Assembly: GCA_963818965.1 (NCBI GenBank)
Contig: CAWFUG010000002.1
Location: 32,001 to 96,000 of the forward strand
Source: an uncultured Verrucomicrobiae bacterium
GTDB taxonomy: Bacteria > Chlamydiota > Chlamydiia > Chlamydiales > Rhabdochlamydiaceae
Direction: 5' to 3'
Length of the DNA stretch: 64,000 bases
In this document: piece after piece, positions 33,001 through 39,000 of the stretch
How positions within the stretch are numbered: the first letter of the stretch is position 1
How the letters are laid out: every line of letters begins with the position of its first letter
Program-made: the position numbers

Positions 33001-36000
33001 TGTACTCATACTCCTCAATCCCCCCCTCTTTCGCATGAATCGCGTAAGGATGGCCTACCTCTTGTGTCAATGTGCCGACCGTCGTCCCGGTGTGAATCTC
33101 ATCATAAGTCTGATAAGTCATAAGAGCAGGATGGGAACAATTCGCTAAGCTTAAGAGCGCTACCCCTAAGAGAAGATTCTTCATTTTGTTTGTTGCCATA
33201 CTTTTCCTTCAATCAAAGTGCGGAACTGATCGCTCGTCGCATATTCAGCGCGCATACTGTAGGTTTGATCTTCCTGCTTTTCATAGAGCTCGAACCCATC
33301 AAAACCGATCTCTTCGATTCTAAACTCCCAGGCGATCACCTTTTCATTGATCAGCCCCTTCCCCACAATCTTTCCGAGCGCTTGATTTTCCAAATCGATG
33401 GAAAACTCCCCTCCGTTGAAATTGTAAAAAGTAAATTCATTGTGCATGACGTCGGAGAGACCTTTGACCTGAATCTCCTGGGTACATTCGATGCGCCCAT
33501 TGGGATCCGTTTTTTCGATATTCCACCGCGTGAAAAATCCCAGTTCTTCTGCGACCATATTCAATTGGATTTTTCCTTGTCCGAGCCAAGAACTCGGGGT
33601 AAGTAAAAAAGGATGGTGTTGTAGCATTAAAATATAAACCTTCTGCTATAAATACTTTGCAAAATCCCAAGAGCTGTCATCGTCGACAGGACAGAGGAGC
33701 CCCCATAGGTGATCAACATCAGGGGCACCCCCGTAATCGGCAGGAACCCACACATCATCCCCATACTCACGATCATGTGCATCGCGAGGTAGGTGGTGAT
33801 CCCCGCCGAGAGAAGCCTCCCAAAGCGGTCTTTAGCTAATATTGTCACCTGAAAACTAAAATAGATCAAACCGAAAAAAAAGAGCAGCAATAAAAACACC
33901 CCGATTAAACCAAATTCTTCACTAAAAGCGGCAAAAACAGAGTCTGTATGGGCAGCGGGGAGCCATTGCCGCCCTGTAAATTCGCTTTTACGCCATCCAC
34001 TTCCCGTAACCCCCCCAAGGCCAATGGCCGTCTGGGACGCCTCCTGATGGTAGGTATGGGGATTTAACCGCTCATATTGGTATTCCTTCATGATCTTGGT
34101 GGCATAAGGGCGCAATCCCTCATGAGACAGGACCCCCAAAAAGAGCATGCTGATCAGTCCCAGCCCGCAAATCGCTAAAAAACTCATGATTTTAATGACG
34201 CGCTTCGGAATCCCGCCTAAGTAAAATAGGACGAGGGCCGTTGGGTAAAGGACCAACGCTGTCCCCAAATCGGGCTGCTTTAAAATCAGTAAAAACGGAA
34301 TAAAGACGATGAGCAGCGATTTAAGCGTCGCTCTTTTTTGAGAGGTCTCTCTCCCCTTCTTTTCCAAATACAAACTCAGCGTCATGACGACGATCAGCTT
34401 CGCATACTCAGACGGCTGAAAGGCAAAATTGATCCCTGGAATCTTATACCAGCGATGCACATTCTGGATCGCCGGCACGAAAAACAATCCGATGAGAATG
34501 AAGATCATGCTCAAATAGAGAACCCCGGTCCACTTCTTAAATTTGCGGTAATCGAGTCCTGCAAAAAAAAGGTAGACGCACCAACCGAGCCCAAACCACC
34601 GCAACTGACTCTTCGTCACCGACGTGAAAAAAGGCTCCTCTCCAAACTCCAAATAATCCCCAGTCGTGGCCGAAATCACCAGCAAGCTCACGCACATCAG
34701 CACGAGGAGAATGGGAATGGTCCGAAAATCAATTCTAGCTAAAGCGCGATGGTTCCACATGATTTTTTATGCTATATCTGTAACCTCGACTTTGTACATT
34801 TTTGCGGGTGCCTTTCACAATCTGTTGACTTGTAGTCGCTTGTGACCTCCGAAGCCGGCTTGTTCAAGCCTGTCTTCGAATGTCACAAGCGACTATAAGT
34901 CAACATCTTGCAAAAATCACCTCGCAAAAATGTACAAAGTCGAGATAACTACTTCTGGTAAAAATAGACCTTGCGCTTGGGAAAGTCAATGAACACGAGC
35001 TTGTCTTCGAGAAAATCCATCCCAATAATAGCACTGATGTCGAAGGGTGTTTTTATTTTCTGAAAGGTCACTGGACCGAAATCTTTATCGCCAATTTTGA
35101 ACATCGACATGTCATAGGTGTCTCCGAACTTAAAAACCATCTGATCAGAGTTCGTGGGATTTAAAATCTCATGCTGGTCAATGGTATCGAGATTATAAAT
35201 CATATGGCTATTGTCTACTCCTTCCATATCCCTATTGAGGAGATTCTTAGTGGATCCTGTGTCTAAAAAACATAGCATAGGACCCGATTCTGTCATCACT
35301 TTAACTTTTAACGAGTTCGGGTTTTGATCGAGAATCAGTGGAACCTCGACAAATTCATCGACGGGGTAGCCATGCTCCTTAAGCGTTTCCAAGCTGTCAC
35401 AAAAAGCGATAAGGGAATTATCGCAATCCATGAAAAAGTTAAAGCTGCGAAATAATGGCCATCCGATTCTTCCCAAACCAAACTCTGAAGAAGATTCTTC
35501 ATCTTTGAGAAGATAGGGAGCACGAATGATCTCAGAGACTGCATTTTGCTCTTCGTTAGATTCTACACTCGGCTTGGATAAGCCATTAAAGGGAAGGTCT
35601 AAATCGTATCGTTCATCGTATAAAGTCACTTCTGGCATAAATTCCCAAAAACTAACAGGGCGCCATAATAACCCATCTTTTTCAAACTCTGGATTAACTT
35701 CTTCCGTTTCTGGTCGAGATAAGATCAGCCTTCCAATTTCTATTTCAGGAACTTGATAGACATTGCTATAGTACTTTTTCCCTCGTATTCCGAAAGTGTC
35801 AGTTTGTCGAACAAATAATTTGTCATCGAGTTGTTGGAGTAGTTTTCGCGGCAAACTAATACCGCTGCAAAAGCCCAAATCCACCTTGACTGTGGTCATG
35901 TGACCACCGACGTTAACTTCCACGCAGGGGATCTGAGCCCTGGACACTGTCATTTTTACAGGTATGAAATAAGGTCCTTTAAGGCATAGATGTGACGACT

Positions 36001-39000
36001 GCTGCCGACTTTTTCGGTTGAGTTTTTGAACTAAAGGCCAGACAAAAAAAGGCCCCATCAAAAACACAACCGAAAAAATAATCCATTTCTTTTTCATCGA
36101 TTATCTCTTGTTTCCATCTTCTCTATGACCACCGTGGAAATCTACATCCCCTTTTCCTGAATTAAAATTATGGTCTACCCTTCCTTCGGCATAATTGCCC
36201 TTATTATCGTGGGCCTCCCCTTTTGCATAGGCATCATATTGGGGACCATCTTTTCCGCCATAATGAAGGGTGCCTCCTAATTCAAAGCTTCCGCCGGCTC
36301 CTCTATCATTATCTCTATCATTATGAGACCTAATGGGAAGTATTCTGAATCCACCTTTAAGGAACGTATTGCATGGCGATCGCTCCATTTGATACTTGCT
36401 CGCAATGAGCATTCCCTTCTCTGATCGATTTTCTAAACGATTCAATCCGACAGCTGGTGGAACATAGAGAAAATACGCATAAGTTGTCTCGAGTGTTTCA
36501 TAGCAGTCATAAGCCTGATCATCAGAGCTGATTGCTTGAATACAGACTAGATCGGCATTGTCAGATAAAATTTTATTAGAAAACCCAGAATCTAAAGGAG
36601 AGTCAGATTTTAGAGTTAAGACAGTGAAATCTACTGATGAGGTCTCAAGTTCTTCTGCAGATCCACGAAAATACACAGGCTCATTGGAGTCATTTTTAAT
36701 AAAACGAGCTCCAATATAACGCTGAAAGGCATTGAGCTCTTCGTTGTGCACGCCATTTACAGAGCAATTCATTAGAGCTTGATGCAACTCAGGATTACGA
36801 GCAACTTCCGCTAAATACTCATGAACATAATCGGAAATTTGAGAAGCTTTCTGTTGATCGAGCTCACTCAGTTCATCAAATTTCTGAACCAATTTTTCAG
36901 ATAATCGGATCCAAGGTCTCAAGGTGTTTTCAAAAGTTTGCTCCTCAACAGGAACATCAAGGATGGCAGCAGCTGTTTTTTGAATGTTATCCACAGCATC
37001 CTGTGCATACTGTTCCATTGCGATTGAGGTTGAGGAAAATTCTTGCGATTGAACGGGTGTTGTCAGAGAAAAAAGAAGGATCGATCCTAACAGTAGACTG
37101 GATTGCTTTGCCATAACATCCTCTCGGTTAAAGTTTTCCGGAAGACTAGCACTACCTCCAAAATCGAGCAATCGAAAAATTTACAATCCAAGTAAGCCAT
37201 TGATAACACTGCGGGATGATCTTTCCCGGCCCTACCCCCCGTAATAAAATCAGCCAGTTAAACTTAAAGACATATGTGATTAATAAAGAGCTTGTTAACG
37301 CATGCTGCGCAAGATTTTCTTGCGTGAACCTATGGATTTTGGTAGAATCGAGTACAAACACATTGCAAGAGGGGCTTATGTTCATATGAAACCCAAGATC
37401 GGCCAAAATATAAAAAAAGCTCGAGAGCTCAGGGGCTTTGAGCAAAAAGATCTTGCTGAGGCAATTGGATTAGTCCGTCAAAGCATCAGTGATATTGAAC
37501 TAGGAAAACGAGAAGTAAAAGCTTTGGAGCTCTATGCAATTGCGCGCTTTTTGCATGTAAGCCCTGCTAGTATACTTGATCAGGATAGTTCAGAATCAGA
37601 AGAAGCTATATCTGTTCTTTGGCGTCAAAAACCCACTCGTAATGAAAAAGCGTCTGAATCTAAATTTGTTGCCAAATGCGAAGAGTATTGCTGGATTGAA
37701 CAATTGGTCTTTGGATCGAATGCTGTGCCTAAAATCGCAAGTAGTTTACCCAACGTGTCGATTGATTTAAACCAGTTTACTTGTAACCATGCTTATGATT
37801 TGGCCGAGTCTATTAGACGTGAGATGTCTTTGGGAGATTTCCCTGCATCACAACTCATGAATGTTTTAGAAGAATTTTATGATGTTAAATTCATTGTTGA
37901 TGATGAATGTGAGGCTTCGGCAGCTTCTTCAAGATCCCACAAGGGCTCATTTACTCTAATTAATGGGAAAAATGTTGAGCCACGACAGCACTTTAGTGTC
38001 GCGCATGAACTGTTCCATTTAATTACTTGGAGCGATAAGTTGTTGCACTTAGTTAAAAATGACAAAAACCTTCATAAAAAAAATGAACAGCTCGCAGATG
38101 CTTTTGCCGCAGGTCTTTTAATTCCCCAGGAAAAGTTGCGCGCTGAAATGGCTCAGATTTGTGCAGAAAAAAACCTTACCGCTGCTGACATTTTTGTATT
38201 AGCAGAGCAATTTCGAGTATCAAGTTTAGCTATGCTTTACAGGATTTGGAACCTCAAATTAATCAACAAAATTCGATTTGAGGAAATTAAAAATCAACTC
38301 CCTGTCAATTCCCTTTCGATTTCATCTGCACCACTTGTACATCGGTTAAGAAGCAAATTTGTACGCCTTGTTTACCTCGCTTATGAACGCGCCCAAATTT
38401 CAAGGGCAAAAGCTGCAAAACTTTTGGGAGTAGATCTAAGTGATTTATCAGATCATTTTCAAGAGTACGATCTCATGGAAATGCATGGCCAGTAAGCAAT
38501 TAAAAATTATCCTCCCCGATGCGCAGGTGATCATTGATTTATTTCGCAATTCTCTATGGAGACAGATTGTCGAGGCTTTTGATATCGGGGTCACACCGAT
38601 CATACTTCAAGAATCGCAGTTTTATAAAGACAGCTATGGGAAAAAACAATCGATATGTCTTAAGAATGATATTGCAGTAAAATCAATTCGAGAAATCGAA
38701 ACGTCCATAGAGCAGATCGAACATTTGCACAGTCTTCTTCAGCCCAACATACACTCCCCTCTTGATGATGGCGAACTAGAGGCAATAGCTTTTCTCAAAA
38801 GTCAAAAACATGACGATTACCTGTTTTGTTCTGGGGATGCTCTTGCAGTAAAATATGTAGGAGCTCTTGGATTGAGGCATCGTTCGATATCTTTGCAAAA
38901 ATTGCTGGAGCAAAAGAACATCAAGATTAAGCTTGAGCCCAAATACTCTGACGATATATTCCAGAAAATGCTCAATGAGGGATTTCGAGATTCTCCATTT

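Follow-up and report, generated by a model that had tools for sequence, protein, structure and literature searches.

A predicted membrane-anchored tandem retropepsin encoded beside tail-bearing partner proteins in chlamydiae

Introduction

What would a pepsin-shaped protein act on in a chlamydial cell? The question is raised by positions 34949-37114 of the window, a 64,000-nucleotide stretch of a Rhabdochlamydiaceae genome to which all coordinates below refer. This span holds two minus-strand open reading frames (ORFs), termed gene A and gene B. An earlier note on this DNA read gene A and its paralogues as active pepsin-type endopeptidases of the envelope or inclusion face that cooperate with sphingomyelinase-like phosphodiesterases on host membranes. 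The analysis presented here confirms part of the observation behind that proposal and supports part of its interpretation.

Architecture, fold and family of gene A

Gene A (34949..36097, minus strand, as are all features described here) encodes 382 amino acids and is predicted to specify a membrane-anchored, single-chain, two-lobed clan-AA aspartic peptidase with tandem retropepsin-like halves. Its N-terminal hydrophobic anchor (36023..36085; residues 5-25, WIIFSVVFLMGPFFVWPLVQK, translation checked) falls within residues 2-35, which form a helix in the AF2 model. The anchor described previously is thereby confirmed. A similar N-terminal hydrophobic segment is present in 131 of 144 relatives, and in 108 of these 131 the N-terminal flank is more positive than the C-terminal flank. 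The anchor points to an envelope location. There is no obvious pro-segment between it and lobe 1.

Lobe 1 (35390..35974; residues 42-236) gives a sub-threshold PF13650 match at residues 59-132 and carries the putative active-site triplet D73-L74-G75 (35873..35881) in the context V-D-L-G (residues 72-75). It also contains a lineage-specific insert of about 60 residues (146-205; 35483..35662) that is predicted to be disordered, since AF2 pLDDT drops under 50 in two stretches of it (residues 164-179 and 187-200). The insert is found neither in the paralogues of this genome nor in the closest relatives (324-345 amino acids); it is unique in the genome and differs from a palindromic element at 2952-3118 of the window. 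Lobe 2 (34952..35362; residues 246-382) includes the putative triplet D279-T280-G281 (35255..35263) within L-D-T-G-S (residues 278-282) and the C-terminal sequence IIGMDFL...VFIDF.

The AF2 model of gene A (pLDDT 85.7, pTM 0.78) has two lobes. A Foldseek search returned at least 500 matches at E<=1e-3 with chymosin, rhizopuspepsin and renin on top, and VIA comparisons with PDB entry 9iy9 and pepsins gave Z scores of 18.3-19.5 and rmsd values of 3.0-3.9 Å over 233-243 residues. The two-lobed pepsin-like fold proposed earlier is thus upheld as a prediction. Membership of the pepsin family (A1) by sequence was considered and rejected: among 121 relatives none matched PF00026, whereas 69 matched PF13650 (Asp_protease_2) at E<=0.01. 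At the same threshold 35 matched PF13975, and one of the 121 gave a weak TAXi_C match. Gene A itself remains sub-threshold for Asp_protease_2 (15 bits, E 0.042). A paralogue of 540 amino acids exceeds the cut-off of this family (30.4 versus 24.3 bits), contrary to the earlier statement that no member has a Pfam row. Profiles of lobes 1 and 2 align with each other by hhalign (probability 94.7%, E 6e-8, 113 columns). The matches to Asp_protease_2 rather than PF00026, together with lobes that are still alike, argue that gene A is a single-chain tandem retropepsin. By sequence, its family groups, in tandem form, with the retropepsin-like Pfam families of bacteria.

The enzymes of MEROPS A1/PF00026 (pepsin, chymosin, renin, penicillopepsin and the plasmepsins) resemble gene A: they are bilobed monomers in which each lobe contributes one Asp, and they have psi-loop glycines together with a flap-like hairpin (VIA Z 18.3-19.4; Foldseek E 2.5e-10 and weaker). 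The C-terminal motif hhG-x-x-F...hhD is common to gene A and plasmepsin V. Gene A differs in its lobes, which are about 140 residues long and mutually similar in sequence at the E value given above, in the membrane anchor that replaces the pro-segment, and in the D-L-G of lobe 1. Lobe-to-lobe similarity in A1 enzymes is described as confined to the motifs (PMC2761423).

A plan like that of gene A is seen in 9iy9 of Bacteroides fragilis ('putative endopeptidase' or 'Exported protein', released 2025-08-06), for which our literature search found no paper. Its single chain has two retropepsin-type lobes in a pepsin-like arrangement and compares with gene A at Z 19.5 and rmsd 3.2 Å over 239 residues (chain residues 154-437); the profile match is weak (E 0.0042), and 9iy9 has about 150 additional N-terminal residues. 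Bacterial 'aspartyl protease family' proteins of 257-366 amino acids (PF13650/PF13975) follow the same single-chain two-lobe plan, and the nearest Atlas clusters to gene A, which serve as leads only, are of this kind (scores 0.88-0.92). Judged from such sequences, retropepsin-type proteins with two lobes in a single chain seem to be common among bacteria, and one structure is already deposited; the earlier claim that pepsin-fold proteases are rare in bacteria is not supported. The chlamydial branch is distinguished from 9iy9-type proteins by its plain N-terminal anchor, the lobe-1 D-L-G and an apparently obligatory tail-bearing partner encoded upstream.

For each lobe, the sequence family is that of the single-lobe retropepsin-like peptidases (Asp_protease_2), such as APRc (RC1339) of Rickettsia and RloA of Pseudomonas, which have the envelope location predicted for gene A. 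Two reports describe APRc and the Rlo enzymes as homodimers in which every chain forms one lobe and carries D-T-G (PMC4140852, PMC12239564). They also describe APRc of the obligate intracellular Rickettsia as membrane-embedded and able to cut the OmpB and OmpA autotransporters in vitro (PMC4140852), and the Rlo enzymes as having signal peptides (PMC12239564). Gene A, in contrast, would place two unlike lobes in one chain, and its client is suggested by gene order.

Conservation of the putative catalytic residues

Conservation was counted among 152 relatives of gene A taken from clusters at 50% and 90% identity. In the lobe-1 motif, D is kept in 150, L in 143 (with T in 4 and S in 3) and G in 151; in the lobe-2 motif, D is kept in 150, T in 134 with S in 17, and G in 150. 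Each of the psi-loop glycines (G212, G359) is retained in 151 relatives, D224 in 146 and D371 in 144, and near the predicted flap hairpin G106 is found in 148 and Y109 in 125. In a profile search, the lobe-2 triplet aligns to both catalytic motifs of plasmepsin V. The two-lobed fold, the conserved Asp in each lobe and the N-terminal anchor make an active envelope peptidase the likeliest function predicted for gene A. This much of the earlier interpretation survives, whereas its assignment to the pepsin family fails on sequence.

We know of no characterised enzyme that carries D-L-G, in which Leu takes the place of the Thr/Ser of pepsins and retropepsins. The Thr side chains of both lobes are described as forming a 'fireman's grip' (PMC11313796), half of which is therefore missing in gene A.

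The family is expanded within the genome, as the earlier note had observed. Paralogues lie on contigs C2, C3 and C9 (a single-unit copy and a 541-amino-acid double unit); in addition, a gene pair is present twice on C4, and C12 has one pair. An Asp in each lobe was said to be usual, and five of the six distinct protease genes do retain the pair. Two paralogue units are without their Asp: the 303-amino-acid C4/C12 paralogue reads N-L-S and S-T-G, and the first unit of the 541-amino-acid protein reads D-I-G and N-T-T. Outside this genome the family extends further than had been thought, to 24 of 60 further genomes from the same taxonomic family and, in a phylum sample, to 26 of 197 genomes of other families.

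The upstream gene and its C-terminal tail

Gene B (36101..37114) encodes 337 amino acids from an ATG start, and an upstream TTG at 37171 is also in open frame. A spacer of 3 nt (36098..36100) separates its TAA stop codon (36101-36103) from the ATG of gene A, and no terminator-like or promoter-like site beyond chance lies between the two genes. This operon structure couples genes B and A tightly. The partner and protease ORFs of the paralogue loci on C3 and C9 even overlap.

The predicted exported product of gene B (AF2 pLDDT 76.4) begins with a signal peptide, continues with a helical region, half an EEP domain and a linker, and closes with a beta tail. The signal-peptide-like N-terminus (37043..37114; MAKQSSLLLGSILLFSLTTPVQSQ) corresponds to conserved hydrophobic N-termini in the orthologues (alignment A3). 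The helical region (36698..37042) has a TFENTL motif, and AF2 models helices over residues 25-139; it is similar to the helices at the N-termini of M3 oligopeptidases (neurolysin and thimet oligopeptidase; VIA Z 9.7-11.3, Foldseek E 0.03-0.06).

The adjoining Exo_endo_phos remnant (36386..36676) comprises only the N-terminal half of the domain. Gene B is homologous to Exo_endo_phos (PF03372) enzymes such as neutral sphingomyelinases and retains the first half of their fold, but it matched no Pfam family, and its remnant resembles EEP proteins only weakly in Foldseek and VIA comparisons. Eight of its 16 homologues have a precomputed PF03372 match. In alignment A3, the 'VLNL' of relatives is 'VLTL' in gene B and their 'C(I/L)QE' is 'CIQA', and a deletion removes the region that carries the 'GDLN' and 'SDH'-like motifs in longer relatives. 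We take the positions changed to T and A, and those of the two deleted motifs, to be EEP catalytic residues; the half-deleted remnant thus appears to be catalytically dead. The motif FRILPIRS (36326..36349), conserved as h-x-(I/V)-L-(P/L)-(V/I/A)-(K/R)-S in the same alignment, directly precedes a charged, disordered linker (residues 246-270, AF2 pLDDT below 50) and is a candidate recognition or cleavage site.

The tail (36104..36301) spans about 60 residues, is modelled by AF2 as four amphipathic beta strands (residues 274-284, 292-302, 307-316 and 321-330) with a hydrophobic face opposite a polar face, and ends ...EDGNKR. Its face alternation of 13.6 compares with 4.69 +/- 1.61 in shuffled sequences, and none of 5000 shuffles reached that value. 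Four long antiparallel C-terminal strands are likewise found in trimeric autotransporter anchors (Hia, AtaA) and in the last barrel strands of EspP. The modelled tail (residues 271-332) compares with Hia 1042-1098 at Z 6.2 (rmsd 2.0 Å, 56 residues), with AtaA at Z 5.9 (2.2 Å, 57 residues) and with EspP at Z 6.5 (3.1 Å, 60 residues), although a Z of about 6 is middling. Seventeen tails searched against Pfam at E<=10 gave no sequence match to any family, and many tail proteins, unlike autotransporter anchors, have no signal peptide. In a second tail type the last residue is F, W or Y, as is common in outer-membrane proteins.

Linkage of the tail to the protease

The cargo attached to the tail is modular. 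Carriers include EEP proteins, PTPlike_phytase proteins (63-67 bits), a hydrolase-like protein and short ORFs of 97-200 amino acids without other domains. The sphingomyelinase-like neighbours described earlier are borne out for the C4/C12 partner, the only one in the genome above the Exo_endo_phos cut-off (33.6-34.6 bits), but not for gene B. The C3 and C9 partners also have no Pfam EEP match, and three of ten partners tested from other genomes pass the cut-off. Across all fetched loci, 22 of 52 partners carry the tail on a protein of at least 248 amino acids; most long tail proteins have an N-terminal hydrophobic segment and some have an enzyme domain. The tail, not the EEP domain, is the constant feature of the partners across genomes.

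When 19,096 ORFs of the genome were searched with a tail HMM, matches were confined to genes directly upstream of protease loci: six ORFs at E<=1e-11 (on C2, C3, C9, C4 twice, and C12) and a seventh on C9 (E 1.2e-3), which is the best match of a second tail model. In the phylum sample, the type-1 tail occurs in 17 of 249 other genomes, and the protease is present in all 17; for 21 of 23 tail matches, a same-strand protease match follows within 193 nt on the 3' side, and a single one lies away from a protease cassette. Among loci of other genomes, fetched with protease queries only, 41 of the 53 distinct protease ORFs are immediately preceded by a tail ORF, and the pairing once read from one genome is therefore conserved. 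Four of the 12 remaining proteases are at contig ends and four come second where two protease genes stand in tandem; loci L044, L091 and L095 have no tail gene despite ample upstream DNA. No type-1 tail was detected at E<=1e-5 in 27 of 44 protease-bearing genomes of the phylum sample, and at loci from genomes without it the second tail type is directly upstream in 13 of 16. The model for this second type was built from ORFs chosen by eye at these very loci, which leaves 13 of the 41 upstream matches not independent of it. Gene order and strand of the pair are kept across at least nine chlamydial families.

Proposed function and alternatives

The reading that we prefer, and to which we give an even chance, is that gene A encodes an exported, anchored clan-AA peptidase dedicated to its tail-bearing neighbour, most likely cutting the linker before the tail. 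Two retropepsin-like halves joined in a single chain would form a pseudo-dimer of pepsin shape, each lobe supplying one catalytic Asp (D73 and D279). The product would be translated from the same transcript as gene B, exported and held by its N-terminus, presumably facing the periplasm. There it would recognise the gene B product through the tail region and cut it, most likely in the linker near FRILPIRS, and cleavage would serve to mature the N-terminal cargo, set it free or dispose of it. A precedent is APRc of Rickettsia, with its in vitro cleavage of surface autotransporters. The cargo encoded in this window is the apparently dead, half-deleted EEP remnant, and the protease would therefore not stand beside an active sphingomyelinase-like enzyme here. 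Counting against a client role, many partners are short and have no N-terminal hydrophobic segment, whereas their cognate proteases have a signal or anchor.

Close linkage and coupling also fit a regulator, inhibitor or chaperone. The partner might control the protease in trans as a pro-segment, inhibitor, activator or folding helper, which we regard as unlikely but worth weighing. Small cognate inhibitors are encoded beside some secreted proteases (staphostatins, Spi); here too the pairs are one-to-one and tightly coupled or overlapping, many partners are small proteins with no export signal, as would suit a cytoplasmic guard, the protease has no obvious pro-segment, and the hydrophobic face of the tail could pack against another protein. 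Yet a tail on the long protein of this window and on the 22 long partners elsewhere would be odd for an inhibitor, as would their hydrophobic N-termini and occasional enzyme domains, and no similarity to any known inhibitor turned up.

We consider it improbable that the product of gene A, comparable to plant pepsin-fold proteins that lack activity, has no catalytic role and serves as a membrane-anchored module that binds the tail or acts as its receptor. Retention of the Asp pair, the following glycines and the psi-loop glycines in 150-151 of 152 relatives is hard to explain without catalysis. The lobe-1 D-L-G does deviate from the D-T/S-G hallmark, but its Leu is conserved widely enough to be a family trait rather than decay; the Asp-less paralogues and the single TAXi_C match are the other points in favour of such a module.

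The original proposal, that the protease and lipid phosphodiesterases act together on host membranes, now seems very improbable. The two-lobed fold, the retained Asp pair and the EEP domains above the Pfam cut-off agree with it, and the other cargo types are phosphoesterases or hydrolases as well. Against it, the partners in this window and on C3 and C9 have no Pfam EEP match and lack the motif residues, gene B also lacks half the domain, and many partners are devoid of any enzyme domain, the tail being the conserved element. Just as improbable is a general envelope housekeeping protease whose tail adjacency was inherited with a duplicated cassette and carries no functional tie, for although many protease-bearing genomes lack the type-1 tail and three loci have no detectable tail gene, the second tail type fills the place in most type-1-less loci, tails are nearly confined to protease loci, and order and strand persist among families.

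With the tail-directed peptidase as the preferred reading, the gene pair suggests an undescribed protease-and-client pair.

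Organization of the cassette and its copies in the genome

Gene A (34949-36097, minus strand; 382 aa), which encodes a putative membrane-anchored, two-lobed aspartic protease, is preceded on the same strand by gene B (36101-37114), whose product has 337 aa if translation starts at the ATG; the frame is open from a TTG at 37171 as well. The stretch analysed corresponds to positions 32001-96000 of contig C2. The two genes form an operon in which the TAA of gene B and the ATG of gene A are separated by 3 nt. A scan returned 8 promoter-like sites (5.3 ± 2.5 expected by chance) and 3 terminator-like sites (2.4 ± 1.7 expected), neither number exceeding chance and none of either kind between genes A and B. 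An FtsW/RodA gene lies downstream of gene A. On the other side of the cassette and on the opposite strand, Pfam identifies a 397-aa fusion of HTH_3 and Peptidase_M78 (ImmA/IrrE-like) domains (37302-38495, plus strand), overlapped by a 196-aa ORF without Pfam match (38440-39030, plus strand); together the two resemble regulator pairs known from mobile elements. A 167-base palindromic element (2952-3118) recurs in dozens of copies on 10 of the 12 contigs of the 2.24-Mb assembly at 70-94% identity, none of them inside gene A or gene B. An insert of about 60 residues in gene A was considered as a copy of this in-frame element and the idea rejected, as the two share no similarity and the insert is unique in the genome.

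Searching the genome with gene A recovered the paralogues listed in the earlier note: one on contig C3, a single-unit copy and a double unit of about 541 aa on C9, and an adjacent gene pair with one copy on C12 and two copies, inverted relative to each other, on C4. The motif assignments of that note hold as well, with D-L-G in lobe 1 and D-T-G in lobe 2 of the C2 (gene A), C3 and C9 copies and of the 320-aa member of the C4/C12 pair. The 303-aa member of that pair carries N-L-S and S-T-G, and the double protein has D-I-G and N-T-T in its first unit and D-L-G and D-T-G in its second. The double protein was excluded from our alignments and was examined whole by Pfam and in the genome sequence. 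On C4 and C12 the cassette consists of a partner gene, the Asp-less paralogue and the Asp-bearing paralogue (C4:3177-4989, plus strand; C4:17867-19667, minus strand; C12:110523-112335, plus strand), with identical protein sequences in the three copies. Two of these lie inverted on one 22-kb contig and the third at the end of C12, which reflects either recent duplication or an assembly repeat. The combination of an apparently dead and an apparently live protease behind one partner gene may represent a unit of its own.

Fold and family assignment of gene A

An AF2 model of gene A, built from an alignment of 121 relatives (pLDDT 85.7, pTM 0.78), has a long helix at its N-terminus (residues 2-35), two lobes rich in beta structure and an insert of low confidence (residues 164-200). 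A Foldseek search of the PDB with this model gave 500 or more matches at E≤0.001 (target-normalised TM 0.43-0.55), the first of them chymosin, rhizopuspepsin, penicillopepsin and renin, with E values from 2.5e-10 upwards. Superposition of residues 37-382 with a second aligner gave Z scores of 18.3-19.4 across both lobes for about fifty pepsin-family entries, and a Z of 19.5 (rmsd 3.2 Å over 239 residues) for 9iy9, a 'putative endopeptidase' of Bacteroides fragilis. Because model confidence, Foldseek and superposition agree, the two-lobed pepsin-like fold claimed in the earlier note is well supported as a prediction. Gene A would thus be a bilobed single chain with one conserved Asp per lobe (D73 and D279), as in family A1, and it equally has the feature of 9iy9, in which two retropepsin-type lobes in one chain form a pepsin-like pseudo-dimer.

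The same note's assignment to the pepsin family did not survive comparison at the sequence level. Gene A lacks a match to the pepsin family PF00026 at E≤10, as do all 121 relatives at E≤0.01. When the 121 relatives were scanned singly at E≤0.01, Asp_protease_2 (PF13650) was matched by 69 (best E 3.3e-10), gag-asp_proteas (PF13975) by 35 and RVP by 2, and precomputed PF13650 or PF13975 matches are present in seven of 40 close relatives. Gene A itself scores 15 bits against PF13650 (E 0.042), below the cut-off of 24.3, and the double paralogue scores 30.4 bits, above it. Among PDB sequences the family profile matched members of clan AA, all of them weakly: plasmepsin V (E 9e-4), Ddi1 (E 2.7e-3) and 9iy9 (E 4.2e-3). 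A language-model look-up placed gene A nearest to clusters of bacterial 'aspartyl protease family' proteins of 257-366 aa with PF13650 or PF13975 (scores 0.88-0.92, to be taken as leads only). Neither gene A nor gene B was matched by NCBIfam.

The two lobes of gene A are alike over their whole length, a profile of lobe 1 matching a profile of lobe 2 over 113 columns (probability 94.7%, E 6e-8); in pepsins, similarity between lobes is confined to the motifs (PMC2761423). Since its relatives match PF13650 and PF13975, since PF00026 is not matched and since the lobes are alike throughout, gene A is, as judged by sequence, a single chain of two retropepsin-like halves. It is not a retropepsin in the sense of a homodimer of one-lobe chains, as its lobes are homologous but unlike, with D-L-G in one and D-T-G in the other.

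Conservation of the active site and membrane topology

Profile searching of 1.84 billion representative sequences yielded 1976 proteins at E≤0.001, of which 491 reach E≤1e-30. We examined conservation in 152 single-unit sequences of 280-410 aa, drawn from 189 proteins. The aspartates D73 and D279 are each kept in 150 of the 152, G75 in 151 and G281 in 150. L74 is kept in 143 (T in 4, S in 3), and residue 280 is T in 134 and S in 17, so that Asp-Thr/Ser-Gly does not occur in both lobes: the second position is T or S in 151 of 152 sequences in lobe 2, and lobe 1 reads D-L-G. The psi-loop glycines G212 and G359 are each present in 151 sequences, D224 in 146, D371 in 144, K93 and G106 in 148 each and Y109 in 125. 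This pattern argues for catalysis by the gene A family.

The site would nevertheless differ from that of pepsins, where the fireman's grip is made by Thr side chains of both lobes (PMC11313796). The Leu of lobe 1 is a family trait and would take away half of this grip. A hydrophobic-hydrophobic-Gly psi-loop motif in each lobe is given as an A1 feature in PMC2761423. Lobe 2 of the family has I/V-L/I-G at this place (G359) and lobe 1 has R/K/S-I/L/V-G (G212), with a polar first position. Y109 and G106 fall in a predicted hairpin (residues 94-115) that may correspond to the flap carrying Tyr75 in pepsins.

A hydrophobic N-terminal 17-mer (mean Kyte-Doolittle value ≥1.6) is present in 131 of 144 relatives that start with Met. 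In 108 of these 131 it carries more positive charge on its N-terminal flank than on its C-terminal one. The catalytic domain would therefore, by the positive-inside rule, lie outside the cytoplasm.

Gene B carries the remnant of a phosphoesterase domain and a beta tail

Gene B is homologous to the genes 5′ of other protease loci in the genome (BLAST E 2e-10 to 6e-14) and has no Pfam or NCBIfam match of its own. Among 16 database homologues, eight have a precomputed match to Exo_endo_phos (EEP, PF03372) and two are named endonuclease/exonuclease/phosphatase. An alignment of the partner proteins separates long forms, which are 413-523 aa in length and have the complete EEP-like domain, from short forms of about 337 aa (gene B, P0191, P0196, P0199, P0200, P0201, P0203 and L024) that lack the whole stretch from after 'ASK(Y/F)' to the linker. 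The C-terminal half of the domain is thus gone from gene B. In what remains, VLTL replaces the VLNL of relatives and CIQA replaces C(I/L)QE, so that the catalytic motifs have T in place of N and A in place of E. Gene B had been read as sphingomyelinase-like; with PF03372 unmatched, motif residues changed and half of the domain deleted, its sequence indicates that it is not a working phosphodiesterase, and annotation as an active enzyme of that kind should be avoided.

The AF2 model of gene B (pLDDT 76.4) consists of a disordered signal peptide, helices (residues 25-139), an alpha/beta part (147-239), a disordered charged linker (246-270) and four strands within residues 274-330, hereafter the tail. 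Foldseek returned nothing for this model at E≤0.001. The helical region (36698-37042, minus strand), which contains a 'TFENTL' motif, resembles in superposition the N-terminal helices of the M3 oligopeptidases neurolysin and thimet oligopeptidase, with Z scores (9.7-11.3) in the range that helical bundles reach by chance. It is kept in many partners and is missing from the C3, C9 and C4 paralogues. The motif that precedes the tail is h-x-I-L-P-(I/V)-(K/R)-S in EEP-type partners and (A/K)-I-F-S-P in short and PTP-type partners. Three further ORFs match a gene B profile (E 5e-16 to 2.5e-7) and have no tail match at E≤10: C11:100727-102016 (minus strand), C12:61653-62882 (plus strand) and C3:30445-31908 (minus strand). 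The last, at a distance of about 1.3 kb from the protease gene on C3, is possibly the neighbour that the earlier note called g00521.

The tail is linked to the protease across several chlamydial families

A hidden Markov model (HMM) built from the last ~80 residues of the partners was run on the genome's 19,096 ORFs (50 aa or longer). It matched only genes located directly upstream of protease loci: six ORFs at E≤1e-11 (on C2, C3, C9, C12 and twice on C4) and, weakly, a seventh on C9 (E 1.2e-3). We then considered 249 other genomes of the phylum, 52 from the organism's own family and 197 from other families. The protease profile is present in 44 of them, 18 of the own family and 26 of the others, the latter spread over eight families; three well-sampled families gave no match (0/16, 0/29 and 0/29). 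The tail profile (E≤1e-5) is found in 17 of the 249 genomes, every one of which also has the protease. Comparing positions by hand, we found 21 of 23 tail matches to end no more than 193 nt 5′ of a same-strand protease match. The other two are an additional tail gene of the same cassette and an isolated one.

In genomes without a match to this first tail model, 13 of 16 fetched protease loci have a short ORF with a related tail directly upstream. This second tail type finishes with F, W or Y. Its model has as best match in the genome the partner of the C9 double protease (E 2.2e-5), and it also finds tails at four loci earlier counted as unpaired. With each protease counted once, a tail ORF lies directly upstream in 41 of 53 loci found with the protease as query, 13 of the 41 resting on the second model, which was built from those same ORFs. 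The 12 remaining proteases comprise four at contig ends, four second genes of tandem protease pairs, one with a sub-threshold tail and three (L044, L091 and L095) with no tail gene upstream. A contig search with a smaller alignment gave 13 loci, all in metagenome-assembled genomes (MAGs); the same search with a single protein gave none, and a word-index search with the tail alone found only gene B itself. The pair of protease gene and tail-bearing partner gene stays together across nine or more chlamydial families.

The tail carries interchangeable cargo

The domains joined to the tail vary. EEP domains above the Pfam cut-off are present in the C4/C12 partner, in three of ten partners tested and at L042, and L039 has a separate EEP gene. 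A PTPlike_phytase domain (63-67 bits) precedes the tail in three proteins of one MAG, and elsewhere the tail follows a hydrolase-like protein with only weak Pfam matches, or EEP remnants that are dead or broken. In partners of 97-200 aa the tail stands alone and the upstream neighbours are housekeeping genes; these partners have no N-terminal hydrophobic segment, and their proteases have signal-like N-termini. One MAG labelled Parachlamydiales (loci L045, L046, L047 and L052) has at least four cassettes in which a PTP-like phytase of the HCxxGxxR type comes before the tail, with a His-rich linker (HRHSHGHR repeats) preceding the tail. The signal-less short partners at L085-L090 and L096 have in common a tail ending in F or W and, 60-80 residues ahead of it, a 'WNG(R/H)' motif; they are translated just before signal-bearing proteases.

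Averaged over the family, hydrophobicity alternates strictly along the four strands of the tail: the summed difference between faces is 13.6, a value reached by none of 5000 shuffles (4.69 ± 1.61). Residues 271-332 of gene B superpose on the transmembrane strands of Hia (Z 6.2, rmsd 2.0 Å, 56 residues), on AtaA (Z 5.9, rmsd 2.2 Å, 57 residues) and on EspP (Z 6.5, rmsd 3.1 Å, 60 residues), a resemblance to autotransporters in which the Z scores are middling, Foldseek E values are 0.2-0.4 and the tail has a pLDDT of 60-79. None of 17 tails matches YadA_anchor (type Vc) at E≤10, and searches of Pfam and PDB sequences with the tails gave scattered single matches at E 0.003 or weaker, without a link to any family. 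The boldest reading, and not the best one, is that the tail acts as a small outer-membrane anchor like those of trimeric autotransporters, with four amphipathic strands per chain and, in many members, an aromatic last residue; as a trimer it would form a 12-stranded barrel. It would ferry interchangeable EEP, PTP-like phytase or hydrolase passengers to the chlamydial surface, with the adjacent protease as dedicated releaser; we consider this improbable. If true, it would amount to a secretion cassette complete in itself, of a 'carry and release' type not known from any bacterium, with echoes of APRc and the rickettsial autotransporters.

Proposed function of the protease-partner pair

In the arrangement that we favour, the aspartic peptidase would be exported, tethered to the membrane and made together with the neighbour that bears the tail. 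What the data show is the operon, the gene linkage, the conservation and the modularity of the cargo; catalysis, orientation and cleavage are inferences. The peptidase would recognise the neighbour via the tail region and would cut it, probably in the exposed linker, to mature or release the cargo of the tail. The nearest tested analogue of this arrangement is APRc of Rickettsia, an enzyme of retropepsin type that is embedded in the membrane and cleaves OmpB and OmpA in vitro (PMC4140852).

Other explanations seem less likely. The tail might act as a regulator or inhibitor of the protease, which the linkage of the two genes and the partners made of tail alone would also fit. A complex of gene A (residues 38-382) with the gene B tail (245-337), modelled from alignments and without controls, gave run scores of 0.56, 0.00 and 0.00 and speaks neither for nor against binding. 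Gene A might also be a non-catalytic binding module, as the Asp-less C4/C12 paralogue and the Leu of lobe 1 could suggest; the retention of the catalytic residues among relatives points the other way. A general protease, an unlikely reading, would be consistent with the three loci without a tail gene, and would leave the upstream tail at most loci to inheritance of a duplicated cassette. Joint attack of protease and sphingomyelinase-like neighbour on host membranes, as proposed earlier, fits partners with a full EEP domain and is likewise unlikely; the EEP domain at this locus is dead.

The single-chain tandem retropepsin design is already catalogued and has a deposited structure (9iy9). In open-licence PMC and bioRxiv papers we found no account of 9iy9 (from 2022 on) and, among the matches listed, none of a chlamydial member of the gene A family; the listed papers on Asp_protease_2 (PF13650), going by title and start of the abstract, concern eukaryotic genomes and transposable elements, or HIV. 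The named relatives of gene A are all 'hypothetical proteins' from metagenome-assembled chlamydiae, some in records labelled Verrucomicrobia or Acidobacteria. What is new here is that the constant part of the partner is a four-strand tail of two sequence types, that its cargo is interchangeable, that the EEP part of gene B is dead and that the tail resembles, in its predicted structure, an autotransporter anchor.

Rawlings and Bateman raise the question of whether a retropepsin-like unit gave rise to pepsin by being duplicated and fused (PMC2761423). The gene A family would be a bacterial fusion of this kind that is still readable in sequence, its lobes matching each other at E 6e-8 and each matching single-lobe bacterial families, with the shape of pepsin already reached and an active site that is asymmetric, lobe 1 having D-L-G and lobe 2 D-T-G. 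The interchangeable domains in front of the tail are phosphoesterases or hydrolases, enzyme types that intracellular bacteria employ on the lipids of their hosts, and the protease-tail pair is thus a concrete candidate for a step of effector maturation or release in environmental chlamydiae.
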